A stretch of DNA of 64,000 nt from an uncultured Gammaproteobacteria bacterium (GTDB lineage Bacteria > Patescibacteriota > Patescibacteriia > Magasanikbacterales > UBA922), in NCBI GenBank assembly GCA_964522405.1, contig CAZFTR010000005.1, positions 7,747-71,746 on the forward strand, written 5' to 3'. The notes below the pieces were generated by a model, which saw only the letters and a list, made by a program, of their open reading frames with translations, had not been told where the DNA came from and ran no database searches. The translations under genes and the position numbers were made by a program. This document shows, piece by piece, positions 3,133-24,712 of this stretch. Every line of letters begins with the position of its first letter. The stretch's first letter is position 1.

Positions 3133-3203
3133 TGGGCGTGTCGGTTAATGGTAAACCACGGGTCTCCAAAACCCGAACTGGGAGTTCGATTCTCTCCACG
3201 CCT
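3133..3203 (+). tRNA. trnW: tRNA-Trp (anticodon CCA)
   Basis: Cloverleaf: acceptor gggcgtg/cacgcct, D arm ggtt-aatggta-aacc, anticodon arm cgggt-cTCCAaa-acccg, T arm gggag-ttcgatt-ctctc; CCA not encoded. Confidence 0.8.
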
Positions 3204-3207
3204 GCTA

Positions 3208-6925: not shown

Positions 6926-7040
6926 ATTCGGATTTACGGATAATACTGATTATCCGGATGCTGAGTATGCTTGAATACATAAACATAAATTTAATTAAAG
7001 ATATCCGGATTATCAGGAATTATCTGTATATCAGGATACC
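6926..7040. repeat. Family A repeat, locus 1 (forward copy 6926-6960 plus partial inverted copy 7003-7040)
   Basis: attcggatttacggataatactgattatccggatg matches the 40-bp element seen at 28147, 28687 (inverted) and 54397. Confidence 0.6.
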
Positions 7041-7058
7041 TTCGTGTCAGTATAAATT

Positions 7059-8039
7059 ATGAAATATATAAAAATTTTAATTTTAATTTTAATCTTACTG
7101 TATGTGCTTTTTTGGCTTTTTAGTTTTAAAAAATATCAAGTTAATTATGGTATAAGTTTTAATCAAGATCATGCTGTAGACCTTGGTCTTGATTGGAAAG
7201 AGGTTTATACAGAAATGTTAAATGATTTGAAACCTAAGTATATTCGAGTTGCAGCCATGTGGAGCGATGTTGAAGAAGTGAAAAATCAATATGATTTTTC
7301 AAATGTGGATTTTATGATGGATGAGGCGCAGAAACATGGTGCCAAAGCTGTATTAGTTGTGGGGCAAAAAGCCCCAAGATGGCCTGAGTGTCATGTGCCG
7401 GAATGGTTGGATTATGGGCAAGAAGGATCAAAGCAACATCTTTTGGGCTACGTAGAAAAAACAGTGGAAAGATACAAGAATCATCCAGCACTTGAAATTT
7501 GGCAAGTAGAAAACGAACCATTTATAAGATTTGAATTTGGGAATTGTGAAAATTACGATGAAGAGGCAATATTTGATGAAATAGATCTGGTTCGTTCCCT
7601 GGATTCTGAGCATAAGATCTTGGTTACTGATAGTGGAGAACTTAGCACTTGGTGGAGATCAAGCAAAGCAGGAGATTTGTTTGGTACTACCATGTATCGA
7701 GTTGTCAGAACTCCAAATGGTATGAAAGTGAGTTATGCTTGGATGCCGGCCGGTTTTTACCGACTAAAGGCAGCTCTCTATGGTAGAACTTATAATGATT
7801 ATTTTGTTTCAGAATTACAAGCAGAACCTTGGTTCAATGACTCAAACCCGACTAATACCTCTATTGAGGAACAAGAAAAAACCATGGATCCAACTCGTCT
7901 TAAAAAACATTTTAAATATGTGGAACATGTTGGTACCTCTAGAAGCTACCTCTGGGGTGTAGAGTGGTGGTATTTTATGAAAGAGGTAAAAAATGACAGT
8001 AGATATTGGGATATAGTAAAGGGAAAACTTTCAAATTAA
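7059..8039 (+). CDS. glycoside hydrolase, GH5-like TIM-barrel family
   Basis: Signal/TM N-terminus; WQVENEP motif (NEP catalytic acid region of clan GH-A). Confidence 0.45.
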   Translation: MKYIKILILILILLYVLFWLFSFKKYQVNYGISFNQDHAVDLGLDWKEVYTEMLNDLKPKYIRVAAMWSDVEEVKNQYDFSNVDFMMDEAQKHGAKAVLVVGQKAPRWPECHVPEWLDYGQEGSKQHLLGYVEKTVERYKNHPALEIWQVENEPFIRFEFGNCENYDEEAIFDEIDLVRSLDSEHKILVTDSGELSTWWRSSKAGDLFGTTMYRVVRTPNGMKVSYAWMPAGFYRLKAALYGRTYNDYFVSELQAEPWFNDSNPTNTSIEEQEKTMDPTRLKKHFKYVEHVGTSRSYLWGVEWWYFMKEVKNDSRYWDIVKGKLSN

Positions 8040-8623
8040 AAACATCTAATACAAAAAAAGTGTTGTATTTTCTTTTTAAATATTTCAAAACTTTCAAAAA
8101 ATAACACCAAACCAACTATTCCCATAGAAAAAATTACCGGCTGAGTGTTGAATTGAGGTAAGTTGAAATTAAAGATATATGAAATTGAGGGAAGTGCTAA
8201 ACTCCAAACAAAAATTGATAAGAAAATTGAAAATGCTAGATTCGTGAGCATGGATAAGATATTCAAAAAACTGCGTATCAGGAATATGTCAGTTTTTTTT
8301 ATTTTTAAAATTGTTTTTTTGGAAAGCTTATGATTTTTAGCTATTTTCAATACTAAAGAAAAAAATATGGCCAAAAGCCCTATTGCTAGTACCAATAACA
8401 ATAAATCAGCAAAAAAAGCATACCAACTAGGATATTGTTTTTGAATGGCAAAAGATAAGTCTGTATCAATCAAGGTTGAATTTTGGTTAAATCCAAGACT
8501 GGTAATGAATAGCAAACTACCCAAAATCCGCAAGATCCAAATGTAAGTCCTGGATTTCTTTTTTTGTTGGGCGCAAATTAATTTCATATTAAATAGTATA
8601 TAAAATAAAGACATTGTAGACAA
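8036..8623 (-). CDS. hypothetical membrane protein
   Basis: 195 aa, five or more hydrophobic helices. Confidence 0.35.
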   Translation of the reverse strand: MSTMSLFYILFNMKLICAQQKKKSRTYIWILRILGSLLFITSLGFNQNSTLIDTDLSFAIQKQYPSWYAFFADLLLLVLAIGLLAIFFSLVLKIAKNHKLSKKTILKIKKTDIFLIRSFLNILSMLTNLAFSIFLSIFVWSLALPSISYIFNFNLPQFNTQPVIFSMGIVGLVLFFESFEIFKKKIQHFFCIRCF

Positions 8624-11416: not shown

Positions 11417-11568
11417 TTTCCTATTGACAATAATATTAAAATTTAATTATTAGGAAGTGAGTGCCCGGGCAGCCCTCACGTCATGCCTGGCCCATAACCG
11501 TAGCCACTGTTGATTCCTCCCGACAGGGCGGACAGTGCGTACACGGTTTTGACCTCAGCAGGTCTTCC

Positions 11569-11961
11569 TCAAGTGGGGGAAGGAGCGTCCAAGATGGACA
11601 CGGCCCGTGCGATCAGATCACTCGGGCGAAAGGGTTTAGCAACGAAACCTTGCACCGAACCACTCGCCAGCAGGCCTTGCAGCTCGCCAGTTTGTTCGCC
11701 GGTGAAGCCGGACACGAGCAGAAGAGGGGTGTTGTTGCCAGCTTGCCGAAGCGCGCTTGCCACCTCTGTCCCACCCATGCACGGCATGATCACGTCGCAG
11801 AAAATCAGGTCAAACTCACCATCGAGTGCCTTTGTCAGGCCGTCAGCGCCGTTGCCGGCACATTCGACCTCAGCCTCACCGAAGTGGCGAGACAGCGCCC
11901 TCACAGCGATCAACCTGATCATTTCCTCATCGTCAATCACTAGAAACCGCTTTCTTCCCAT
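11569..11961 (-). CDS. standalone CheY-like receiver domain protein encoded in a GC-rich island
   Basis: MGRKRFLVIDDEEMIRL...DLIFCDVIMP...LLLVSGF...VAKPF; GC-rich codon usage unlike neighbouring genes. Confidence 0.55.
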   Translation of the reverse strand: MGRKRFLVIDDEEMIRLIAVRALSRHFGEAEVECAGNGADGLTKALDGEFDLIFCDVIMPCMGGTEVASALRQAGNNTPLLLVSGFTGEQTGELQGLLASGSVQGFVAKPFRPSDLIARAVSILDAPSPT

Positions 11962-11998
11962 AACACCTCTCTTTTGGAGAGGGCTACCCGGACAGGCC

Positions 11999-12027
11999 AT
12001 ATTATATCATCTATGTTGTGCTGTCAA
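11999..12027 (-). promoter_or_regulatory. sigma70-type promoter for the GC-island receiver gene
   Basis: Minus-strand ttgaca-17 nt-taatat, about 35 nt upstream of the ATG, with a cctctc-caaaa-gagagg leader hairpin. Confidence 0.5.
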
Positions 12028-12082
12028 TAGTATGAGATTATTAAATATTGCTTTTTGGCTAAAATATGCTAAAATAATACCT

Positions 12083-12877
12083 ATGACCATAGTTCAAGCC
12101 CTTTTTTTGGGTATAATTCAAGGAATTACAGAATTCCTACCAATTTCATCATCTGGGCATTTGATTTTCCTGCCTAGTATTTTTGGTTGGGAAGATCAGG
12201 GTCTTGCTTTTGACGTGGTAGTTCATCTGGGTAGTTTGCTGGCAGTTATTGTTTTTTTTAGAAATAAACTTTGGAAAATTCTCAAAGGTTTTTTTGCTCA
12301 AGATGATCTACAAAATAGGAATTTAGGATTATTGCTAATCCTTTCAATTATTCCAGCAGGTATAATTGGATTATTTTTTGGAGATTTTATCGAGACAGGT
12401 TTTCGCTCAGCTACAGTAGTTGGTTTTGGTTTAATCTTTTGGGGAGTTCTACTTGGTTTGGCAGATAAGTATTCAAATAAATTGCAAAATCCTAAAAATC
12501 TTGAGAAAGCAAATTGGAAAAATGCCTTGTTCATTGGTTGTGCTCAAGCAATTGCGCTTATTCCCGGAACAAGCAGATCAGGAATTACTATGACAGCAGG
12601 TCTTTTTGCAAAATTTGATCGCAAATCTGCAGCAGAATTTAGTTTTCTGATGAGTGTACCGGTTATTGGTCTTGCGGGTGCTTTGAAGATTTTTGAATTG
12701 TTAAGTTTTGGATTGGGTCAGCTAAGTCTGGAGATTTTATCAGTTGGGTTTATTGCTTCAGCTCTTAGTGGCTTTATAGCAATTTCAGGGCTTATGAAAT
12801 TAATTCAACGTTGGAGTTTTATGCCTTTTGTTTATTATAGGGTGGTTGTTGGAATTTTGATTTTGTTCTTATTTTAA
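12083..12877 (+). CDS. uppP: undecaprenyl-diphosphatase
   Basis: MTIVQALFLGIIQGITEFLPISSSGHL N-terminus and PGxSRSG motif. ORF-track 11510-12877 is an artefactual read-through from the GC island. Confidence 0.85.
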   Translation: MTIVQALFLGIIQGITEFLPISSSGHLIFLPSIFGWEDQGLAFDVVVHLGSLLAVIVFFRNKLWKILKGFFAQDDLQNRNLGLLLILSIIPAGIIGLFFGDFIETGFRSATVVGFGLIFWGVLLGLADKYSNKLQNPKNLEKANWKNALFIGCAQAIALIPGTSRSGITMTAGLFAKFDRKSAAEFSFLMSVPVIGLAGALKIFELLSFGLGQLSLEILSVGFIASALSGFIAISGLMKLIQRWSFMPFVYYRVVVGILILFLF

Positions 12878-12880
12878 TAT

Positions 12881-14296
12881 ATGACAGAAAAACAGATAAT
12901 TAAGAAAATTTATACAGTTTCAAAGGAGCTTGACCAGGATATTTATATTGTTGGTGGTTTTGTGCGTGATGAATTATTGGGGATTAAGCACAAGAAAGAC
13001 TTGGATTTTGTAGTAGTCGGAAGTGGTCTTGAATTTGCCAAGAAATTTGATTTATCTCTAGAAGAAGAGGGGAGTCTGGTTGAGTTCCCAGATTTTGATA
13101 CAGCTCGTTATGTTTTAGATGATTTTGAAATAGAATTTGCAGGAGCTCGCATGGAATCGTATGATTCAGATTCCAGAAAACCGCATGTTAAGCCAGCTAC
13201 TCTTGAAATGGATTTATCAAGAAGAGATTTTACAGTTAATGCCATGGCAAGAAAAGTTATGTCATCTGGTTTGAGTAGTAAAATTCTTGATCCCTTTGAG
13301 GGCCAACAAGATTTAAAAAAGAAGATCATAAGAACGCCACTTGAGCCAAATGAAACATTTTCAGATGATCCACTACGTATGATGAGGGCAGCACGTTTTG
13401 CAGCGCAATTAGAATTTGAAATAGAAGAAAATACTTACAAAGCACTTGATAAAAATGCCAAAAGACTTAAAATAATTTCAGCAGAAAGAATTCAAGAAGA
13501 ATTATTTAAGATGCTTTCAACACTTGAGCCTTCAAAAGGTCTGTGGATTTTATATAAGACAGGATTGTTATCAGAATTTCTTCCGGAAGTGGTCGCACTT
13601 GGCGGTGTAGAAGAAGTTGCCGGTTATGCACATAAAAACAATTTATCCCACAGTTTCAAAGTTGTAGACAATATTGCCCAGATGAGTGATAAGTCAATTT
13701 TGCGTTTTGCCGGTTTGATGCATGATATTGGCAAGGCTGATACAAAGAAATTTGTAAAAGGGCGGGGCTGGACTTTTGATATGCATGATCATCTGGGAAA
13801 GAAAATGGTTAGGCAGATTGGCCGTCGATTGCGCATGAGTAAGGGTGATATAGAATATGTAGCTCACTTGGTTCGCTGGCATCTCTATCCGATTGCTCTT
13901 ATGGATGAGGGGGTAACTGATAGTCCTGTTCGCAGATTAATTGTAAATCTTCAGGAAGATTTGGATGATCTTCTGATTCTTTGTCGAGCAGATATTACCA
14001 CTGGAAATCAGAAGAAACTTAAGAGGAGATTAAAAAATTATGATTATCTGGAAAAAAGAATTGTAGAGGTTTTGGAAAAGGATAAGTTGCGAGCATTTCA
14101 GTCGCCGGTTCGCGGAGAGGAAATTATGAAGGAGTGCGGTTTAGGTCCAGGTCCAACAGTTGGAAAAATAAAAATAGCAATCGAAGAAGCTATTCTTGAT
14201 GGAATTATTGCCAATGAATATGAGCCGGCATTAGAATATTTTAAGAAAATAAAAGATGAATATATGAAAGATGTGCAGGATTGGGAAAAAGTTTAA
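12881..14296 (+). CDS. cca: CCA-adding tRNA nucleotidyltransferase (PolyA_pol head + HD domain)
   Basis: GGFVRDELLG...DLDF nucleotidyltransferase motif, RDFTVNAMA, HD-domain HDIGK. Confidence 0.8.
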   Translation: MTEKQIIKKIYTVSKELDQDIYIVGGFVRDELLGIKHKKDLDFVVVGSGLEFAKKFDLSLEEEGSLVEFPDFDTARYVLDDFEIEFAGARMESYDSDSRKPHVKPATLEMDLSRRDFTVNAMARKVMSSGLSSKILDPFEGQQDLKKKIIRTPLEPNETFSDDPLRMMRAARFAAQLEFEIEENTYKALDKNAKRLKIISAERIQEELFKMLSTLEPSKGLWILYKTGLLSEFLPEVVALGGVEEVAGYAHKNNLSHSFKVVDNIAQMSDKSILRFAGLMHDIGKADTKKFVKGRGWTFDMHDHLGKKMVRQIGRRLRMSKGDIEYVAHLVRWHLYPIALMDEGVTDSPVRRLIVNLQEDLDDLLILCRADITTGNQKKLKRRLKNYDYLEKRIVEVLEKDKLRAFQSPVRGEEIMKECGLGPGPTVGKIKIAIEEAILDGIIANEYEPALEYFKKIKDEYMKDVQDWEKV

Positions 14297-14315
14297 TTCT
14301 AAAATATAAATAAAA

Positions 14316-14345
14316 GCCAGCCCACACAAGGGCTGGTTTGATTTT
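14316..14345 (+). terminator. intrinsic terminator after cca
   Basis: gccagccc-acacaa-gggctggt then ttgatttt. Confidence 0.75.
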
Positions 14346-14349
14346 GAAG

Positions 14350-14770
14350 GGAGGGGTCGGCGCGGCAAGTTGGTCCTGAATTGCCCCTTTTATACGGGTG
14401 GTTGATGATACAACCGCGCCTTCCCCATAAATAGCCTTAGCTTGCGCCTTGGCCAAAGAACAGATGGATCGGGAACCTGGATTTGAACCAGGGACTTCAG
14501 GATTTGGAGTCCTGCACTCTACCGCTGAGTTATTCCCGAAAAAGAGAGGGCTGGGCTTGGGTCTGTCGCCAAGGCATATAGACCACAATCGGACTGGGAC
14601 GCCAGATCCAAGCTTGCCCCCATAAAAGGACAGAAACGCCATCTAGTCCACCGTGGACTAGGGGGGTGACAGCGAGTCTGTGCTGATCCGTGCTGGGCAC
14701 GGGCCCTGATGCGGGGATTTGCACCCCAATGCGCGACGAGTGCCGCGGTTTACTTTGCCTGATTTTGCGG
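14350..14770 (-). other. GC-rich structured island surrounding a tRNA-like gene
   Basis: By eye >55% GC. Perfect hairpins ctagtcca-cgg-tggactag and gggg-tgcaaat-cccc; long-range pair ggggaaggcgcgg/ccgcgccgacccc; no convincing ORF. Confidence 0.4.
14465..14539 (-). tRNA. tRNA-Trp-like (anticodon CCA), GC-rich, CCA encoded; a second and very different Trp tRNA
   Basis: Minus strand: TCGGGAA-TA-ACTC-AGCGGTA-GAGT-G-CAGGA-cTCCAaa-TCCTG-AAGTC-CCTGG-TTCAAAT-CCAGG-TTCCCGA-T-CCA. Confidence 0.6.
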
Positions 14771-16520: not shown

Positions 16521-16602
16521 ATAACAAATCTAAATTCAGCTCTGACACATGTCGGAGCTTTTTATTTAGCCGCAAAACTTGTTGACAATAAATTTTGAAT
16601 TA

Positions 16603-16780
16603 AATAGATATTAGCTTAAATTTAGCACATATATGGTTTGTGGATTAAAAACTCATGAGACAATCCGCAGCCCCCTTGCTGATGCTGAAAGCAGATCAGC
16701 AAGAGAGGCGAGGACGGCGAAGGAGGATTTAATCCACAAACCAATGTAGAATAGAAAAAATTTAAGCTAATATCTATTTG
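16603..16780 (+). ncRNA. Family C structured element, copy 2, nested in a 22-bp outer and 16-bp inner inverted repeat
   Basis: Outer aaatagatattagcttaaattt / aaatttaagctaatatctattt; inner tggtttgtggattaaa / tttaatccacaaacca; core actcatgagacaatccgcagccccc...gagaggcgaggacggcgaaggagga. Confidence 0.5.
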
Positions 16781-16790
16781 ATTCCATTTC

Positions 16791-16819
16791 TTGACAACAT
16801 TTTAAGGCGGTGGTATATT
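16791..16819 (+). promoter_or_regulatory. sigma70-type promoter of the hrcA operon
   Basis: TTGACA - 17 nt - TATATT, immediately upstream of CIRCE. Confidence 0.6.
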
Positions 16820-16844
16820 ATCACTCAAGTATCATGAGTGCTAA
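16818..16844 (+). promoter_or_regulatory. CIRCE operator (HrcA binding site)
   Basis: ttaTCACTC-aagtatcat-GAGTGctaa, a 9-bp spaced inverted repeat close to the TTAGCACTC-N9-GAGTGCTAA consensus; ends 4 nt before the hrcA ATG. Confidence 0.8.
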
Positions 16845-16847
16845 AAT

Positions 16848-17528
16848 ATGGAAACCAGAAAAGAACAATTACTCGGGCTGGTAGTAGAGGAATATATCAA
16901 AACAGCCCAGCCAATCGGATCAAAATTTTTAAGTACAGAAACAGAACTTAGAGTTAGTGCTGCAACAATTCGAAACGAAATGCGAGACCTAGAAGAAACC
17001 GGAATGCTAGCGCAACCACACACCTCAGCAGGAAGAATACCAACAGAAGCAGGGTACCGATACTATGTAGATAATATTTTAAAAATAGGAAAACTTACTA
17101 AGAAAAAACAGGAAAACTTACAAAAAATTGAAAAACTGGAATTAGATAAAAAAAGCAAATACAAAGAAATGGCAAAGTATATTTCAGAGGACTTGGGCGC
17201 TGCGGTTATCATTGCTTTTGGGAGTAATTCATTGTATTATACTGGGATTGGAAATTTATTTTCACAGCCAGAATTCCAAACTCATGCACATACAGTGGAT
17301 GTCTCAGCAGTATTTGACAAGTGTGAAGAAGTAATAGATCAGGTGTTTGAAGAAATAGAAAAGGGCTTACCAAAAGTTCTGGTTGGCAAAGAAAATCCAT
17401 TTGGTTCAGTCTGTAGTTTAGTGGGGGTCCGTTTTGGAAATCATAGTTTGTTGTCAGTTCTCGGACCCATGCGAATGAACTATGGTAGATCATTAGAATT
17501 TCTTGATTTTATCAAGGAAATCGATTAA
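16848..17528 (+). CDS. hrcA: heat-inducible transcription repressor HrcA (short)
   Basis: N-terminal wHTH QLLGLVVEEYIKTAQPIGSKFL...ISAATIRNEMRDLEETG; CIRCE upstream; grpE and dnaK downstream. Confidence 0.8.
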   Translation: METRKEQLLGLVVEEYIKTAQPIGSKFLSTETELRVSAATIRNEMRDLEETGMLAQPHTSAGRIPTEAGYRYYVDNILKIGKLTKKKQENLQKIEKLELDKKSKYKEMAKYISEDLGAAVIIAFGSNSLYYTGIGNLFSQPEFQTHAHTVDVSAVFDKCEEVIDQVFEEIEKGLPKVLVGKENPFGSVCSLVGVRFGNHSLLSVLGPMRMNYGRSLEFLDFIKEID

Positions 17529-17623
17529 TAGTTGATAGTTTGCAGTTTATTGACGATAATTAGTTGTAAACAAAATCAAATTTTAATCATAAACTAATAA
17601 CTATTAACTGTAAACTATCAACT
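17529..17623. promoter_or_regulatory. heptamer-repeat array with inverted arms agttgatagtttgcagtt / aactgtaaactatcaact
   Basis: 17/18 matching inverted repeat flanking a 58-bp AT spacer; second arm is tandem NAACTNN heptads ending 7 nt before the 17631 ATG. Confidence 0.5.
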
Positions 17624-17630
17624 AACAAAT

Positions 17631-18542
17631 ATGTCAGAAGAAAAAAGACCACGAGCAACAATGGGTGTTTATATTTTCAATAAAAAAGGTCAGATTTTAA
17701 TGGCAAAAAGCCCAAAATGGAGTGATCAGTATGTAGTTCCGGGTGGACATGTGGATTATGGTGAAAAAGTAGAAGATGCAGCAATTCGTGAAGTAAAAGA
17801 AGAAACAGGTCTTGATGTAAAAAATCCAGAATTGATTACAGTGATAAATATGATAGAGCCGGAGGATTTTACCAAATACACTGCCCATTTTGTTGGATTG
17901 CAATACCGGGTTGAGTTGATAGATGAAAATCAAAAGCCGGAATTGGATGAGCGTGAATTAACAGAATACAAATGGATTACACCAGAAGAAATTGTAGCAG
18001 ACGAAAACGTAGAACCATTTACAAGAAAAGTAGTACAAGATTTTCTAGTAAACAAAAAATCAAAGAAATTATTTAATAAAAAATGTAAAAACTGTGAGAA
18101 AAATGAAAACCAGTCACTAGAATACAAAGCTGGTTGGCAAAGAGCGCAAGCAGATTATAAAAATTTACAAAAAGAAATAGAAGAAAAAAGAAGCGAGCTA
18201 CTAAGATGGAGTAAAGAGCAAATACTTGGGGATTTTATCCCGGTATATGATAATTTCAAAAAAGCATTTGCAAGTAGAAAAGAGACAGATGATAAAGAAA
18301 TAGAAAATTGGGCAAAAGGAATTGAATACATAATGAAGCAATTTGGAGATATTCTAAAAGCTCACAATATAGAAGAGATTGAAACAGTGGGTCAGGAATT
18401 TAATCCAGAATTTCATGAAGCGATGAGTGAAGAAAATTCAGAAGAATTTGAAGAGGGAGTAATTATAAGAGAAATAGATGCAGGATATACAATGAAAGAA
18501 AAAGTTATAAAAGTCGCAAAAGTGGTAGTTTGTAAAAAATAA
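17631..18542 (+). CDS. grpE: NUDIX hydrolase - GrpE fusion protein
   Basis: N-terminal Nudix box GGHVDYGEKVEDAAIREVKEETGL; C-terminal GrpE region GWQRAQADYKNLQKE...ILGDFIPVYDNFKKA...FNPEFHEAM. Confidence 0.7.
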   Translation: MSEEKRPRATMGVYIFNKKGQILMAKSPKWSDQYVVPGGHVDYGEKVEDAAIREVKEETGLDVKNPELITVINMIEPEDFTKYTAHFVGLQYRVELIDENQKPELDERELTEYKWITPEEIVADENVEPFTRKVVQDFLVNKKSKKLFNKKCKNCEKNENQSLEYKAGWQRAQADYKNLQKEIEEKRSELLRWSKEQILGDFIPVYDNFKKAFASRKETDDKEIENWAKGIEYIMKQFGDILKAHNIEEIETVGQEFNPEFHEAMSEENSEEFEEGVIIREIDAGYTMKEKVIKVAKVVVCKK

Positions 18543-18546
18543 TCTT

Positions 18547-18915
18547 ATGTTTGGAAGAAAAGAAAGAGTAAGAATGCCAGATAGGTTTAAAGATGAAGTC
18601 ATGACCACTGATCATGCAATTGATAAATTAGAGGAGGAAGAAGACACAGCATCGATAATAAAGTGGGCTAAGAATAATGAAATATCAAGAGATGAGATAG
18701 TTTTTTCTTTAAATTGGATATTGGGGTTTGTTTTACTTGAGGAGGAGCTTATAAGAAACGCTGAAACTAGAGTAGAAACGTCAGAAGATGTAAATGATTT
18801 TGATAGCTCAATAGAGTCTACATTTAGTGTTGAGGAGCGTAAGGAATATATAGATAATTTAGCAAAGAGAGTAAGAAAACACGCCGACTATCTAGTAGGC
18901 CTAGATGATTGGTAA
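18547..18915 (+). CDS. hypothetical acidic protein
   Basis: 122 aa ORF inside the heat-shock cluster; no motif. Confidence 0.35.
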   Translation: MFGRKERVRMPDRFKDEVMTTDHAIDKLEEEEDTASIIKWAKNNEISRDEIVFSLNWILGFVLLEEELIRNAETRVETSEDVNDFDSSIESTFSVEERKEYIDNLAKRVRKHADYLVGLDDW

Positions 18916-18972: not shown

Positions 18973-19422
18973 ATGTCATTAATACGTTGGTCACCAGATT
19001 GGGATCCATTTGCCCAGATGGAGCAAATGATGAAAAACTTTCCATCAATGGGTGGTGCAGGATTACAAAAAGGATTTGTGCCTGCCATGGATGTTTATGA
19101 AGAAAAAAACGCAATAGTAGTAGAGGCTCCGCTAGCAGGAGTAGATCCGGAAGATGTAGAAGTAAGTGTAGAAAAAGGAATTTTAACAGTGCAAGGACAA
19201 AGTAAAAAAGAACATGAAGTAGAAGAAAAAAATTATTACCGAAAAGAAATGAGAAGTGGTTCATTTTTTCGACAAGTAGCACTTCCAGCAGCAGTAAAAG
19301 AAGACAAAGTAACAGCAAAGTTTGAAGATGGAATTTTGAAAATCAGTTGTCCAAAAGCGACTCCGACAAAAACAAAGAAAATAAACGTCAAAATAGTGAA
19401 AAAAGCAAAAGGAAAAAAATAA
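18973..19422 (+). CDS. small heat shock protein (Hsp20/alpha-crystallin)
   Basis: Alpha-crystallin domain AMDVYEEKNAIVVEAPLAGVDPEDVEVSVEKGILTV...FEDGILKI; GGAGG RBS. Confidence 0.8.
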   Translation: MSLIRWSPDWDPFAQMEQMMKNFPSMGGAGLQKGFVPAMDVYEEKNAIVVEAPLAGVDPEDVEVSVEKGILTVQGQSKKEHEVEEKNYYRKEMRSGSFFRQVALPAAVKEDKVTAKFEDGILKISCPKATPTKTKKINVKIVKKAKGKK

Positions 19423-19828: not shown

Positions 19829-21781
19829 ATGGGAAAAATATTAGGAATCGATCTAGGAACAACAAATTCATGTATGGCAGTGACAGAAGGTGGTCAGCCA
19901 AAAGTACTTGAGAACAAAGAGGGAAACAGAACAACACCTTCAATGGTTGCAGTTTCAAAAACAGGAGAACGACTTGCGGGACAACTTGCCAAACGTCAAT
20001 CAGTTACCAATCCAGCAAATACACTATATTCGATCAAACGTTTGATCGGACGACGTTTCAATGATCCGGAAGTGCAGGAAGTACAAAAGCATGTGCCTTT
20101 TGAGATTATTCCAGATGGAGATAGATTGAAAATCAAAATGGGGGACAAGGAACATACACCGCAAGAAGTTGCAGCAATGGTTTTACAAAAACTAAAAGCA
20201 GATGCAGAAGAAAAAACCGGTGAAACTATAACAGAGGCTGTTATTACAGTTCCAGCATATTTTGATGATGCACAACGCCAAGCAACAAAAGACGCAGGAG
20301 AAATTGCAGGTCTAAAAGTTTCAAGAATTATCAATGAGCCAACAGCAGCAGCATTTGCCTATGGTTTTGATAAGAAAAATGACCAGAAGATTGCAGTGTA
20401 CGATCTTGGTGGTGGAACTTTTGATATTTCAATTCTAGAGATTTCACATGATGCAGAAGACGACAGTTCAACTGTAGAAGTAATGGCTACAAATGGTGAC
20501 ACCCATCTAGGCGGAGATGATTTTGATCAGGCAATTATCAGATGGATAATCGATGAATTTAAACGCACTGAGGGTGTAGATTTGGGTTCAGACCCATTAT
20601 CACTCCAAAGAGTAAAAGATGCGGCTGAAAAGGCCAAAATAGAGCTCTCAAGCACTCCAGAAACAGAAATCAACGAACCATTTATCACAGCAGGAGCAGA
20701 AGGACCAAAACATTTGAATTTGAAGATGTCTCGAGCAAAATTAGAAGAGCTCGTGGGAGATTTAGTAGAGAGAAGTTTAATCCCAGTAAAGAAATCACTA
20801 GATGATGCTGGAGTTGCAAAAACAGATATAAATGAAGTAATTCTAGTAGGTGGAATGACCAGAATGCCATTAGTTCAGAAAAAAGTAGAAGAATTTTTTG
20901 GTAAAAAACCAAACTCATCAGTAAACCCAGATGAGGTAGTAGCAATGGGTGCCGCAATCCAAGCAGGACAGCTCCAAGGAGATCTTGGAAAAGAAATTTT
21001 GCTTCTTGATGTAACACCACTTTCATTTGGAATAGAGACACTTGGATCAGTTAGTACAAAAGTAATTGATAGTAATACAACAATTCCAACAACAAAATCA
21101 CAAGTATTTTCAACAGCAGCAGATAATCAGCCAAGTGTAGAAATACATGTGCTTCAAGGAGAGCGTGAAATGGCAACGGATAATAAAACATTGGGGAGAT
21201 TTCATCTTGATGGAATTCCACCAGCACCGCGTGGAGTGCCACAGATCGAAGTAAAATTTGATATTGATGCAAATGGAATCCTAAGTGTTTCAGCAAAAGA
21301 TAAGGGAACAGGAAAAGAACAATCAATTCGAATTGAAGCAAGTTCAGGACTAAGTGATGAAGAAATCGAAAAAATGAAAAAAGATGCAGAAGCGCATGCA
21401 GAGGAAGATAAGAAAAAACGTGAAATGATTGATATCAAAAATACAGCAGATACAATGGTTTACACAACAGAAAAAATGATGAAAGATGTTGAAGAAAAGA
21501 AAATAGAAATCACAGAAGAAGAAAAGAAAAAAGTAGAAGATGCATTAGTAAAAGTAAAAGAACTAAAAGAGGGTGAAGATATGGAAGCTTTGAAAACTGC
21601 ATCAGATGAACTTTCAACATCAGCCCAAGCAATCGGAATGAAAATGTATGAGCAAGAACAGGCTGCGCAAAAAGCAACTGGTGGAACAGAAGGCCAAACT
21701 GCAGGAGAAGCCGGTGCAGAAACTGACGAGAAAAAAGAAGATGGGCCGATTGAGGGTGAAGTTGTTGAGGATAGTAAATAG
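19829..21781 (+). CDS. dnaK: molecular chaperone DnaK (Hsp70)
   Basis: [28 protein letters not shown] signatures; 650 aa. Confidence 0.95.
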
Positions 21782-21852: not shown

Positions 21853-22500
21853 ATGCTAAACCAATACAACAATCTAGAAGCACAAGAACAGGAGTTCACT
21901 GAACTCCTTGTTCGCTTTTCAGAAGAAGATAGAGAAGAGATTAAAGGCGCGTACGAATTAGCAAAAGAAATGCATACAGGTCAGCTCAGACATGAGGGGA
22001 CAGCTTATGTAATTCATCCACTTCGAGTCGCTATGATTTTGATGAGAGATTCGGGTATTGAAGACAAAGAATTGATAATCGCAGCACTTCTTCATGACAC
22101 AGTAGAAGACACTCCAGTTACACTAGAAGATCTGAGTAAAAAATATACTCAAAGAACAGTAGGGTTGGTAGAAGATTTAACACGCCACAGACCGGAGAGT
22201 GAAACAGAGCAGCAGAAAAAGCAAGCAAAGCCGATTAAGCTAAATTGGTTTATAAAGAACGCATCCAAAGATTCAAAACTGATCAAATGCGCAGATATAC
22301 TAGATAATATGCGAACCTGGGAATTTATTCCAGAAGGGCATTGGGGAGAGAAGAAATTTTCGCGCTGGATGGACGAAGCCCAGAATTTGTATATTCCGCT
22401 TGCTGAAGTTACAGATGAGTATTTTGTTAAGGAGATTAGAGATTTGTATGAGAAGTATAAATTAAATGAAAGATTTAAGTTGTCATCCCGAGCGGAATGA
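21853..22500 (+). CDS. HD-domain protein, (p)ppGpp hydrolase-like (RelA/SpoT HD domain only)
   Basis: GQLRHEGTAYVIHPLRVAMIL...LLHDTVEDT HD signature. Confidence 0.55.
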   Translation: MLNQYNNLEAQEQEFTELLVRFSEEDREEIKGAYELAKEMHTGQLRHEGTAYVIHPLRVAMILMRDSGIEDKELIIAALLHDTVEDTPVTLEDLSKKYTQRTVGLVEDLTRHRPESETEQQKKQAKPIKLNWFIKNASKDSKLIKCADILDNMRTWEFIPEGHWGEKKFSRWMDEAQNLYIPLAEVTDEYFVKEIRDLYEKYKLNERFKLSSRAE

Positions 22501-22580
22501 GTCCGAGCGTAGCGAGAGCGAATGAAGTCGAGGGATCCCTAGATTACTTTTTTCTTTCAGAAAACTTCACTCGGGATGAC
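22482..22580. repeat. Family B MITE-like element, copy 1
   Basis: gtcatcccgagcgg ... gaagtcgagggatccct ... tttcagaaaac ... cactcgggatgac: terminal IR GTCATCCCGAG/CTCGGGATGAC plus internal AGGGATCCCT palindrome. Confidence 0.55.
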
Positions 22581-22607
22581 AGACTATTGAACTACAACCA
22601 AAAACAT

Positions 22608-23072
22608 ATGAAAAAACTTCCAATGTTCACATCCACGCTATTATTTTTGATAGTTTTTGGATTAGCATTTTGGTATTTTAATTCGCAAGAAGTAGAAGAG
22701 GTAGAAGAAGGTATCGTAGAACAAGAAGAATTGGAAAAACCAGTCTTAATTGGAGATGAAATTGGAGTATCGATTAGTTTTAAATTAGTTTCAAGAGAAA
22801 ATTTAATAGGATCATGGCAATGGACACAGGGTCCGGCATCATGGCAAAGTATAATTCTTGATCAAGATGGAAATTACTATACACATTTGCATGATCGGCC
22901 ATTTGATAGTGGTACTTGGAATTTGGAATCAGGAATACTGTCTCTGGATTCAGAAGTTGGAGAAGAAATGGATTTATCGTTTAAAGATTTGAAATTATCA
23001 AAAGAAGATAATTTGAATATGATGCGAGTGATTGATGACGCGACTGTTAGCGTTTGGGAGAGAATTAAATAA
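22608..23072 (+). CDS. hypothetical membrane-anchored protein (start moved from ORF-track 22497, whose N-terminus lies inside the repeat)
   Basis: MKKLPMFTSTLLFLIVFGLAFWYF signal anchor; in-frame ATG at 22608. Confidence 0.4.
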   Translation: MKKLPMFTSTLLFLIVFGLAFWYFNSQEVEEVEEGIVEQEELEKPVLIGDEIGVSISFKLVSRENLIGSWQWTQGPASWQSIILDQDGNYYTHLHDRPFDSGTWNLESGILSLDSEVGEEMDLSFKDLKLSKEDNLNMMRVIDDATVSVWERIK

Positions 23073-23112: not shown

Positions 23113-24201
23113 ATGTCCAAAGACTACTACAAAACACTCGGCGTCACTAAAAATGCTTCACAAGAAGAAGTAAAAAAAGCTTTTCGTAAACTTGCCCATA
23201 AATATCATCCGGATAAAAAGGGTGGTGATGAGGCAAAGTTCAAAGAAATAAATGAAGCTTTTCAAGTTGTGGGTGATTCTACCAAGAGAAAACAATATGA
23301 TCAGTTTGGCGCAGACTTCCAGCAACAAGGCGGTTTTGGTGGTGGAATGAATTGGGAAGATTTCATGCGAGCAACTCGTGGTGGTGGAGGTGGAATGAAT
23401 TTTGGAGGGGTTGATCTTGGGGATATTTTTGGTGAGATGTTTGGTGGTGGAGGTGGTCGAGGAAGAGGTCAAACTCGTGGAAATGATGTGCAAGTAGATA
23501 TTGAATTAGATTTCAAAGACGCAGCTTTTGGAATAGAGCGTGAAATTAATTTAAAGAAAAACAATCCATGCGCAGTCTGTTCTGGAACTGGAGCTGAGCC
23601 TGGAAGTAAAATGGAAAATTGCGAAACTTGTGGAGGTCAGGGGCAGGTTCGAAGAATCCAACAAACTCTTCTTGGTGCTATGCAATCAGTAAGTACATGT
23701 CACAGTTGTCATGGACAGGGAAAATTTCCAGAAAAACAATGTAAGCATTGTGGAGGAGATGGACTTGAGAGAAGTAATTCAAATTATAAAATAAAAATTC
23801 CTGCTGGAATTGATCATGGCGGTCTTATTAAGTTATCCGGAAAAGGAGAAAGTGCAGGTGTTGGAAGTGTTCCTGGAGATCTTTATGTTCGTGTTCTTGT
23901 GAAATCACTTGAAGGATTTGAAAGAAGAGGTTTTGATGTTCATACTGAGGTTAATATCTCATACCCGCAAGCAGTTTTGGGTGATAAGATTGAAATAGAA
24001 ACTCTTGATGGAAATAAAAAATTGGTAATTCCGTCAGGTACACAGTCACATCAGGAAATCAAATTAAAAAGTTTTGGAATCACTCGATTAAATCGTGGTG
24101 GACGAGGGGATCAGTATGTAAAAGTTGTAGTAACGGTTCCGAAAAAACCGGGTAGGAAAGCGAAGAAGTTGATCGAAGAATTAGGAAATGAGCTAAAATA
24201 G
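23113..24201 (+). CDS. dnaJ: molecular chaperone DnaJ
   Basis: J domain KDYYKTLGV...HPDK; Gly-rich linker; four CxxCxGxG zinc-finger repeats. Confidence 0.9.
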   Translation: MSKDYYKTLGVTKNASQEEVKKAFRKLAHKYHPDKKGGDEAKFKEINEAFQVVGDSTKRKQYDQFGADFQQQGGFGGGMNWEDFMRATRGGGGGMNFGGVDLGDIFGEMFGGGGGRGRGQTRGNDVQVDIELDFKDAAFGIEREINLKKNNPCAVCSGTGAEPGSKMENCETCGGQGQVRRIQQTLLGAMQSVSTCHSCHGQGKFPEKQCKHCGGDGLERSNSNYKIKIPAGIDHGGLIKLSGKGESAGVGSVPGDLYVRVLVKSLEGFERRGFDVHTEVNISYPQAVLGDKIEIETLDGNKKLVIPSGTQSHQEIKLKSFGITRLNRGGRGDQYVKVVVTVPKKPGRKAKKLIEELGNELK

Positions 24202-24202
24202 T

Positions 24203-24712
24203 ATGCAAGAAGCCCCAAATCACAATGGAAAGTTTGGAATAGGAGTTTTTACAACTTTTATAAATGAAAAGGGTCAGGTTTTGCTGGGTCATAGAACTGA
24301 TCATGATTTATGGAATCAGATCGGTGGGGGAGTTCACACTGGTGAATCTCCAGAAGACGCAATGATTCGTGAAATAAAAGAAGAGATATGTGTGGATGCT
24401 AAAATTATTCGATTAGTTGGCGTTTATCCAAAACCAGAAAATAATGAATTGATTTTTTCTTTTGAATGTAAAATTACAAATGGAATTCCTTGTGAAAGCG
24501 CTGAAGTAAATAAAATTGAATGGTTTGATCCAGAAAATATTCCAAAAAATATCTCTCCAAATCAGTTTAAAAGAACTTTTGATGCTTTAGATAAAAATAA
24601 AAAATTTCATTTTTATAATATTCCGTATGCTCGGACTTTGGAGAGATGTAAAGATGGAACTCTAGAAAAATACAATGAAGAAATACTTAAAAAAATAAAA
24701 AGCCCCAAGTAA
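24203..24712 (+). CDS. NUDIX hydrolase
   Basis: Nudix box GGGVHTGESPEDAMIREIKEEICV. Confidence 0.7.
   Translation: MQEAPNHNGKFGIGVFTTFINEKGQVLLGHRTDHDLWNQIGGGVHTGESPEDAMIREIKEEICVDAKIIRLVGVYPKPENNELIFSFECKITNGIPCESAEVNKIEWFDPENIPKNISPNQFKRTFDALDKNKKFHFYNIPYARTLERCKDGTLEKYNEEILKKIKSPK

Follow-up and report, generated by a model that had tools for sequence, protein, structure and literature searches.

A GrpE nucleotide exchange factor of Patescibacteria with a NUDIX hydrolase domain at the position of its N-terminal tail

The window analysed here is a 64,000-nucleotide stretch of contig CAZFTR010000005.1 (assembly GCA_964522405.1) from an uncultured member of the Magasanikbacterales (Patescibacteriota). 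In its heat-shock operon, the gene at the grpE position encodes a 303-residue protein in which a NUDIX hydrolase domain is joined to a nearly complete GrpE domain. We read this protein, with a probability of about one half, as a bifunctional GrpE: a canonical exchange factor carrying an independent house-cleaning Nudix enzyme, with the fusion providing co-regulation, stoichiometry and a dimer scaffold. It would then be the organism's operon-encoded housekeeping GrpE, which releases ADP from DnaK, and the disordered tail of ordinary GrpE would have been swapped for a catalytically competent pyrophosphohydrolase of the MutT/NUDX1/NUDT15 type. A flexible basic linker of 10–25 residues would tie this enzyme to the tip of the GrpE coiled-coil stalk. 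The coordinates of the gene, its parts and its neighbours are collected in Table 1.

Both domains lie in one open reading frame (ORF) and score far above their Pfam thresholds. The NUDIX match reaches 94.4 bits against a cut-off of 21.1 and covers profile positions 2–134 of 134; the GrpE match reaches 134 bits against a cut-off of 25.8 and covers positions 14–165 of 165. The architecture had been proposed in a preliminary description of this DNA, and the strings quoted there are all present: the Nudix box GGHVDYGEKVEDAAIREVKEETGL at residues 38–61, and GWQRAQADYKNLQKE, DNFKKA and FNPEFHEAM in the GrpE part. Approximately 20 NCBIfam GrpE equivalog models are the top matches of the 303-residue protein, all below their clade-specific cut-offs, as is expected for a divergent lineage. 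The reading frame is intact, and no in-frame ATG, GTG or TTG was found between residues 106 and 234, which indicates that the GrpE module is not separately translatable from an internal start. An artefact, in which a frameshift, a misassembly or a miscalled start merged two genes, was also considered. Nothing was found in its favour, and it is rejected by the single frame without an internal start in that interval, by the recovery of the same architecture from hundreds of independent assemblies and by the unfused relatives, which have no grpE-adjacent Nudix gene that could have been merged. Its probability is negligible.

The fusion is widespread among relatives. A search of 5.8 billion proteins (E<1e-5, clustered at 90% identity) returned 584 homologues, from NCBI, JGI, ENA and Logan assemblies. 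PF01025 and PF00293 are both present in all 120 listed 90%-identity clusters, at 42–59% identity and mostly with lengths of 285–330 residues. The named records belong to Magasanikbacteria, Falkowbacteria or unclassified Patescibacteria; every named example is from Patescibacteria. Their usual name is 'nucleotide exchange factor GrpE' of Magasanikbacteria or Patescibacteria, and one IMG record is titled 'GrpE / NADH pyrophosphatase NudC (nudix...)'. In a scan of one genome per GTDB species, 556 relatives were found, and the locus analyses below use the best 80 of these 556, among which no two loci come from one genome. The survey of related genomes of the candidate phyla radiation (CPR) that the preliminary description had called for thus yields an even division: 40 of the 80 loci encode the fusion, comprising 19 of the Magasanikbacteria type and 21 in a more distant, all-fused clade that includes Falkowbacteria genomes. 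Ordinary GrpE is encoded in the other 40, and the 37 of these with a complete N-terminus measure 166–221 residues. Two proteins of 449–450 residues (P0179 and P0237, the latter at 7001–8350 of locus L090) have a tandem NUDIX-NUDIX-GrpE architecture, and P0179 occupies the same slot in an hrcA-x-hsp20-dnaK order. A single 403-residue protein, P0027, reads as NUDIX-GrpE-S1 and is either a real fusion or a miscall. Many of the species-representative metagenome-assembled genomes with a Patescibacteria-type operon (L002, L003, L007, L011 and others) are titled 'uncultured Gammaproteobacteria bacterium', which appears to be a generic or wrong label.

The Nudix box of the window protein (G39 to L61) reads GHVDYGEKVEDAAIREVKEETGL and is canonical. 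Across 44 homologues four residues never vary (G39, E45, R53 and E57), and conservation at two others, E54 and E58, is 90% or more; the GX5EX7RExxEE core is kept in all 40 fused species loci. An alpha/beta/alpha Nudix sandwich is predicted, with Foldseek TM-scores normalised to the target of 0.72–0.83 for 4kyx, 5gp0, 3grn and 1vc8. The closest solved structures are Rickettsia felis MutT (4kyx, E 7e-17), Arabidopsis NUDX1 (AtNUDX1, 5gp0), human NUDT15 and the GDP-mannose mannosyl hydrolase GDPMH, at 24–29% identity. The domain shares its fold, its size and a complete Nudix box with the small house-cleaning Nudix hydrolases (AtNUDX1, 5GP0/6DBY; R. felis MutT, 4KYX; NUDT15, 5BON; E. coli GDPMH, 1RYA/2I8T), to which it is matched with Foldseek E-values of about 1e-11 and phmmer E-values down to 7e-17. 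The conserved residues H86, E109 and W115 of the fusion line up in the AtNUDX1 and 4kyx alignments. Two differences from these enzymes are seen. The small hydrolases stand alone, whereas the Nudix domain of the fusion is tethered to a co-chaperone; and the Nudix box of GDPMH is degenerate, unlike that of the fusion, which has the full REVKEETG.

The domain misses the cut-offs of the characterised subfamilies. In NCBIfam it scores 35 bits against 97.9 (TIGR00586) and 33 against 148 (NF008044) for MutT, 42 against 146 for GDP-mannose mannosyl hydrolase (NF011963), 40 against 103 for NudB, 41.8 against 116 for RppH (NF001938) and 22.3 against 79.55 for ADP-ribose pyrophosphatase (TIGR00052). The last two matches are confined to residues 4–63 and 32–69, respectively, both in the N-terminal half around the Nudix box. 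The neighbours in the PDB by sequence and fold span enzymes for 8-oxo-dGTP, GDP-mannose, geranyl-PP, thiopurine-NTP and ApnA. By every computable criterion the protein is classed with both the GrpE and the NUDIX families, and judged by these models it fits no characterised Nudix subfamily. Downstream-motif rules look for a Pro or Tyr 16–18 residues after the box; P77 is present in only about half of the sequences when alignment A1 is read by eye.

An exhaustive NUDIX profile search of 1.84 billion representatives identified 9592 relatives of the domain. Many of them are stand-alone proteins of 135–150 residues at 41–47% identity, which are about as close as the more distant fused forms. The gene contexts of three stand-alone relatives differ from one another: an archaeal replication cluster with PCNA and primase, a position beside Ham1 in a bacterial contig, and a position beside an NTP-transferase in a Magasanikbacteria glycosyltransferase cluster. 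The NTP-transferase adjoining this last relative (40% identity) has GMPPB-type Pfam hits, a weak lead towards GDP-mannose chemistry. The fused domains and 101 stand-alone relatives have the same conserved positions (N17, K29, W30, P37, G38, G39, E45, R53, E54, E57, E58, H86, E109 and W115), and no fusion-specific conserved residue of the NUDIX domain was found in this comparison. The simplest reading is that the fused Nudix domain would be an unchanged enzyme, predicted to be catalytically competent. Its chemistry would be that of the stand-alone relatives, namely hydrolysis of a nucleoside di- or triphosphate derivative.

The GrpE part is predicted to be nearly complete. In an AlphaFold2 model built from a 44-sequence alignment (mean pLDDT 86.7, pTM 0.50), the Nudix sandwich (residues 7–140) has block-mean pLDDT values of 93–98, and the linker (residues 144–151) falls below 50. 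The GrpE part forms a long helix (155–214), a second helix (222–244) and the strands of the beta domain (247–301), with block means mostly of 71–92 and one 10-residue block at 63. The pTM is consistent with a model of two confident domains with an undefined relative orientation. The GrpE structures matched are those of Geobacillus kaustophilus (4ani, E 4.6e-20), E. coli (1dkg, E 7.8e-10), 3a6m and human GrpEL1, and Foldseek also matches the GrpE model 9a81. In the 1dkg alignment, residue i of E. coli GrpE corresponds along the stalk to residue i+107 of the window protein, which places the start of the long helix at the equivalent of E. coli residue 48. Residues R64, P97, G122, P151 and R183 are functionally important in E. 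coli GrpE. The counterparts of the first four are kept (R171, P204, G230 invariant; P259 at least 90% conserved), and the position of R183 is K291. The C-terminal 150 residues would act canonically, with the beta domain opening the nucleotide cleft of DnaK and the stalk touching both its nucleotide-binding and its substrate-binding domains.

In its C-terminal 150 residues the fusion protein has the same architecture (long helix, helical bundle and beta domain) and the same conserved stalk and beta-domain residues as bacterial GrpE, and it shares the CIRCE/HrcA operon position of bacterial GrpE (1DKG, 4ANI and the M. tuberculosis DnaK-GrpE cryo-EM structure). The difference lies at the N-terminus, where bacterial GrpE has a disordered tail of 30–45 residues and the fusion has a folded Nudix domain of 135 residues, which takes the place of the tail and of nothing else. 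The disordered tail is not a defining feature of the Pfam GrpE family. In the unfused relatives an acidic, low-complexity tail stands at the Nudix position, often followed by the same 'K-x-F-F-x-K-x-C-K-x-C-E' linker. In E. coli the tail motif 17-IIM-19 transiently fills the substrate groove of DnaK (PMC12915176), and deletion of the M. tuberculosis tail stops GrpE-stimulated substrate release (PMC10803776). This hydrophobic motif, which binds the DnaK substrate-binding domain, is absent from the fusion, where the NUDIX domain is found instead. From its sequence, the 'KLF' motif of the linker might substitute for it. A basic-hydrophobic-basic motif of this kind is present in the linkers of 59 of 111 fused and 9 of 37 unfused relatives, and the spacing between Nudix box and stalk varies from 87 to 119 residues among the fused homologues.

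The tip of the long helix bears a CxxC motif (C152 and C155). This motif is found in 71/111 to 81/120 fused homologues and in 23 of 37 unfused GrpEs of the same clade, some of the proteins having CxxCxxC; it thus belongs to this GrpE clade rather than to the Nudix module. Cysteine is absent from E. coli GrpE, in agreement with the 1dkg alignment, whereas the stalk of the fusion is capped by the CxxC. In a parallel dimer the two CxxC pairs could together make up a Zn(Cys)4 site, or a disulfide could clamp the coiled-coil thermosensor. Vertebrate mitochondrial GrpEL2 has a redox-sensitive Cys87 in its stalk, for which a disulfide is proposed to regulate Hsp70 binding (PMC12987570). A stalk cysteine in a GrpE-type exchange factor offers a possible analogy for C152/C155; GrpEL2 differs in having a single cysteine rather than a stalk-tip CxxC pair, in lacking an enzyme domain and in belonging to an unrelated lineage.

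These features of the stalk tip bear on a reading in which the Nudix fold serves mainly as a folded, dimeric and possibly ligand-binding cap, with catalysis secondary. Such a cap could stand in for the disordered tail, hold the coiled-coil thermosensor together or, by steric effects, tune the release of substrate from the DnaK substrate-binding domain. The Nudix domain sits exactly where the tail would be; in E. coli and M. tuberculosis this tail is a competitor of substrates (PMC12915176, PMC10803776). The CxxC and the basic-hydrophobic-basic motif lie between the Nudix domain and the stalk, and a pseudo-dimeric cap is one possible reading of the tandem NUDIX-NUDIX-GrpE variants. However, no fused lineage departs from the catalytic Glu and Arg residues, which favours an enzyme that is still active, and no fusion-specific conserved surface is seen. 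In addition, the low-confidence, length-variable linker speaks against a fixed docking geometry, and many sister lineages live without the Nudix domain. A predominantly structural role is very unlikely.

The operon context identifies the fusion as the grpE of the heat-shock operon. The fused gene takes the grpE position of an hrcA-grpE-hsp20-dnaK-dnaJ order in 40 of 40 fused loci, and the unfused loci are arranged alike in 39 of 40. This shared gene order makes the fusion gene the orthologue of the operon grpE, and it is the only GrpE gene within the window. Upstream, hrcA lies 5´ of grpE in 79 of the 80 loci; downstream, dnaK is present in 40/40 fused and 33/40 unfused loci, and hsp20 in 34/40 and 22/40, respectively. 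A CIRCE operator precedes hrcA in the window with one mismatch to the consensus (0.01 matches expected by chance), and CIRCE-like sites with at most three mismatches are found in 76 of the 80 loci. With this operator ahead of hrcA, the whole operon and the fusion gene within it come under heat-shock control by HrcA.

The preliminary description had also listed an HD (p)ppGpp-hydrolase-like gene and two more Nudix genes in the cluster. The HD gene is found between dnaK and dnaJ (HD_4, 62.6 bits); its product matches the N-terminal HD hydrolase domain of RelA/SpoT (TIGR00691 positions 1–146, E 7e-31) and, on this match, looks like a stand-alone small alarmone hydrolase. One extra Nudix gene is present downstream of dnaJ. 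The other was not found in the window by the family HMM or by a relaxed Nudix-box regular expression in all six frames. Of the 40 fused loci only 2 have an HD_4 gene at this position, and conservation of the second Nudix gene after dnaJ is not seen in relatives; a conserved nucleotide-signalling cluster made of these two genes is rejected on these grounds.

The history of the fusion was traced on a DnaK tree of 66 genomes (629 columns, 100 bootstraps). The fused or unfused state changes 12 times on this tree (range 10–14), and at least 10 changes are required in 100 of 100 bootstraps. Fused and unfused forms are likewise interspersed in the tree of the GrpE domain. The Falkowbacteria-type clade is fused throughout, with 18/18 members on the DnaK tree and 21/21 on the GrpE tree. 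Pairwise identities of the NUDIX and GrpE parts rise and fall together (Mantel r 0.55, 0/2000 permutations; 0.50 when the Magasanikbacteria type is taken by itself), indicating that the two modules largely travelled together. A neighbour-joining tree of the NUDIX domain is star-like, with fused clusters interspersed with stand-alone forms, and does not separate one origin from several. The most economical account would be an ancestral fusion followed by repeated in-frame loss. An origin by fusion with a neighbouring Nudix gene is rejected: grpE has no adjacent NUDIX gene in any of the 40 unfused loci, the weak hits to the NUDIX model in three of them lie several kilobases off, and apparent 'NUD2' neighbour hits proved to be the fused ORFs themselves. 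In a scan for co-variation with the fused state, no column of GrpE (18 fused and 38 unfused sequences) or DnaK (15 and 30) passes Bonferroni correction, and the lowest p value is approximately 1e-3.

This lability bears on a further explanation, in which the substrate of the tethered Nudix domain is a nucleotide of the DnaK cycle or of the stress response, so that exchange becomes directional or sensitive to the nucleotide pool. It could, for example, destroy the released ADP, clear damaged ATP or ADP analogues or hydrolyse dinucleotides of the Ap4A type. The fusion is conserved, its catalytic residues are intact, the entire operon is under heat-shock control, and the matches by sequence and fold include Ap4A/Ap6A hydrolases (1f3y, 3i7u, 1vc8), all of which would fit such coupling. 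Ap4A accumulates on heat shock and is reported to bind DnaK. Bound DnaK would also be no more than a few nanometres away from the Nudix domain, which is carried on the stalk end that binds the substrate-binding domain (geometry from PMC10803776). However, the module has been lost or gained at least 10 times without change in operon content, and stand-alone archaeal and CPR relatives in unrelated gene contexts conserve exactly the same residues. The domains are joined by a flexible linker of variable length, the scan above revealed no DnaK or GrpE position that co-varies with the fused state, and the adjacent HD and Nudix genes are not kept together with the fusion in relatives. In the general architecture of GrpE, moreover, no part is further from the nucleotide cleft than the stalk tip. 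The suggestion of the preliminary description that an ADP or alarmone signal is coupled to the DnaK cycle is therefore not favoured: the operons that gained or lost the module are otherwise identical, and no NUDIX, GrpE or DnaK position specific to the fused forms was found. We consider direct action on DnaK-cycle or stress nucleotides unlikely. A more specific form, in which the stalk-tip Nudix domain hydrolyses a nucleotide of the Hsp70 cycle (ADP, damaged adenine nucleotides or Ap4A) and the adjacent CxxC is a zinc or redox switch, is distinctly unlikely. If it were true, the protein would be the first exchange factor with a built-in nucleotide hydrolase, ejecting its ligand and destroying or editing it, and chaperone cycling would be coupled to nucleotide-pool quality in nucleotide-scavenging organisms.

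The reading of the fusion as a canonical GrpE with an independent Nudix enzyme offers two benefits for the joining of the domains. The first would be co-regulation by HrcA/CIRCE in heat shock together with a 1:1 stoichiometry with GrpE. The second would be a dimer scaffold: the parallel GrpE dimer would bring two Nudix domains together, and the closest characterised relatives of this Nudix family are homodimeric. AtNUDX1, NUDT15 and GDPMH are homodimers, and the tandem NUDIX-NUDIX-GrpE variants fit the same dimer theme. In the complex, the Nudix domains would be held on flexible tethers at the stalk end, beside the substrate-binding domain of DnaK. An obligatory mechanistic link of the Nudix domain to the DnaK cycle is less likely; the coupling appears to be loose because the linker varies in length by about 30 residues, the state has changed at least 10 times, and no GrpE or DnaK column is associated with it. 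The analysis shows which domains are joined, that they are intact, where the gene lies in its operon, and that the fusion is both conserved and labile. We infer that both activities are retained, that the GrpE dimer would serve as a scaffold and that the two activities would function independently of each other.

Several points weigh against this reading. The fusion has been kept over two order-level lineages (32–60% identity) and is fixed in every Falkowbacteria-type genome sampled, which suggests more than accidental co-expression. The Nudix domain always stands at the stalk end by the substrate-binding domain of DnaK and may therefore affect substrate release; the stalk end of GrpE binds this domain in other species (PMC10803776), and the tail that has been replaced matters for GrpE function in both E. 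coli (PMC12915176) and M. tuberculosis (PMC10803776). The scan for co-variation is low-powered, with 18 fused against 38 unfused sequences for GrpE and 15 against 30 for DnaK. Finally, every NCBIfam Nudix equivalog scores far below its cut-off, so that the substrate class is not predictable.

The architecture is unusual, as the preliminary description had noted. No PDB chain combining NUDIX and GrpE was found in sequence and Foldseek comparisons, and no paper describing a GrpE-Nudix fusion was found in full-text literature searches for GrpE with Nudix, fusion or Patescibacteria. The words 'Nudix', 'fused' and 'fusion' are absent from a 2025 review of GrpE-like exchange factors (PMC12987570). 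The fusion sequences are public and named only GrpE, a database name that hides half of the protein. Extra domains that direct or modulate the Hsp70 cycle are carried by the eukaryotic BAG-family and Hsp110 exchange factors. The principle of extra domains is common to these factors and the fusion, and their exchange domains are unrelated; we know of no BAG-family or Hsp110 factor with a nucleotide pyrophosphohydrolase. GrpE is among the best-studied co-chaperones, and the role of its tail in substrate release from DnaK was shown only recently. The swap of the tail for an enzyme, together with sister lineages that lack the enzyme, provides a natural deletion series on the function of the GrpE N-terminus. 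A Nudix activity that acts on the DnaK nucleotide cycle would represent a new mode of Hsp70 regulation and would make the fusion much more interesting; otherwise the fusion would be a clean case in which joining to GrpE has brought an enzyme into a heat-shock regulon and onto a dimer scaffold in reduced CPR genomes.

Table 1. Features of the fusion gene and of the surrounding heat-shock operon (window coordinates).
Feature	Position	Strand	Remarks
NUDIX-GrpE fusion gene	17631-18542	+	303 aa, ATG start, single uninterrupted frame
NUDIX hydrolase domain	17649-18044 (aa 7-138)	+	Pfam PF00293, 94.4 bits; predicted small MutT/NUDX1/NUDT15-like alpha/beta/alpha fold
Nudix box	17745-17813 (G39-L61)	+	GX5EX7REUXEEXGU, complete
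Flexible basic linker	18051-18083 (aa 141-151, NKKSKKLFNKK)	+	Basic-hydrophobic-basic 'KLF' motif
CxxC motif (C152-K-N-C155)	18084-18095	+	N-terminal tip of GrpE long helix
GrpE domain	18075-18536 (aa 149-302)	+	Pfam PF01025, 134 bits
CIRCE operator TTATCACTC-N9-GAGTGCTAA	16818-16844	+	3 nt upstream of hrcA start codon
hrcA (226 aa)	16848-17528	+	First operon gene; Pfam HrcA C-terminal domain, 47.7 bits
A-T-rich hairpin in hrcA/NUDIX-grpE spacer	17529-17624	+	22-nt arms
Orphan ORF (122 aa)	18547-18915	+	Heat-shock operon; no Pfam match
hsp20 (149 aa)	18973-19422	+	Pfam
dnaK (650 aa)	19829-21781	+	Client of GrpE module; from translation
HD_4 gene (215 aa)	21853-22500	+	HD_4, 62.6 bits; between dnaK and dnaJ
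Orphan ORF (191 aa)	22497-23072	+	Heat-shock operon; no Pfam match
dnaJ (362 aa)	23113-24201	+	J domain and CxxCxGxG repeats visible in translation
Second, different Nudix gene (169 aa)	24203-24712	+	Box GGVHTGESPEDAMIREIKEEIC; 66.9 bits; starts 2 nt after dnaJ

Two orphan ORFs interrupt the operon. The 122-residue ORF has no counterpart in any of the 80 related loci, and the 191-residue ORF has counterparts in only 3 of them. The spacer between hrcA and the fusion gene contains a hairpin whose arms (17529–17550 and 17603–17624) are 91% complementary (-27.3 kcal/mol, z -4.7) and which ends 6 nt 5´ of the start codon of the fusion gene. Only one 18-nt blastn match at chance level (E 0.008) was found to it in the related loci, and the hairpin is not conserved by sequence. 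In the intergenic region between the SPFH gene and hrcA, shortly before the CIRCE, a nested inverted repeat at 16597–16784 forms a hairpin of approximately 190 nt whose core is rich in G+C. The fold of 16585–16850, which includes the CIRCE, has an energy of -99 kcal/mol (z -10.6); the repeat is single-copy in the window, and its sequence is not conserved in the 80 related loci. An Rfam search of both intergenic hairpins gave only sub-threshold look-alikes of miRNA precursors and no credible family. Further upstream, an ORF at 11510–12877 encodes BacA (undecaprenyl-diphosphatase) with approximately 196 residues N-terminal of the domain that have no Pfam match; the ORF may have a later true start or an N-terminal extension. 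Two genes for tRNA-Trp(CCA) lie within 11 kb of each other, at 3134–3205 (+) and 14465–14539 (-), and the latter accounts for the spurious overlapping ORFs at 14241–14724.

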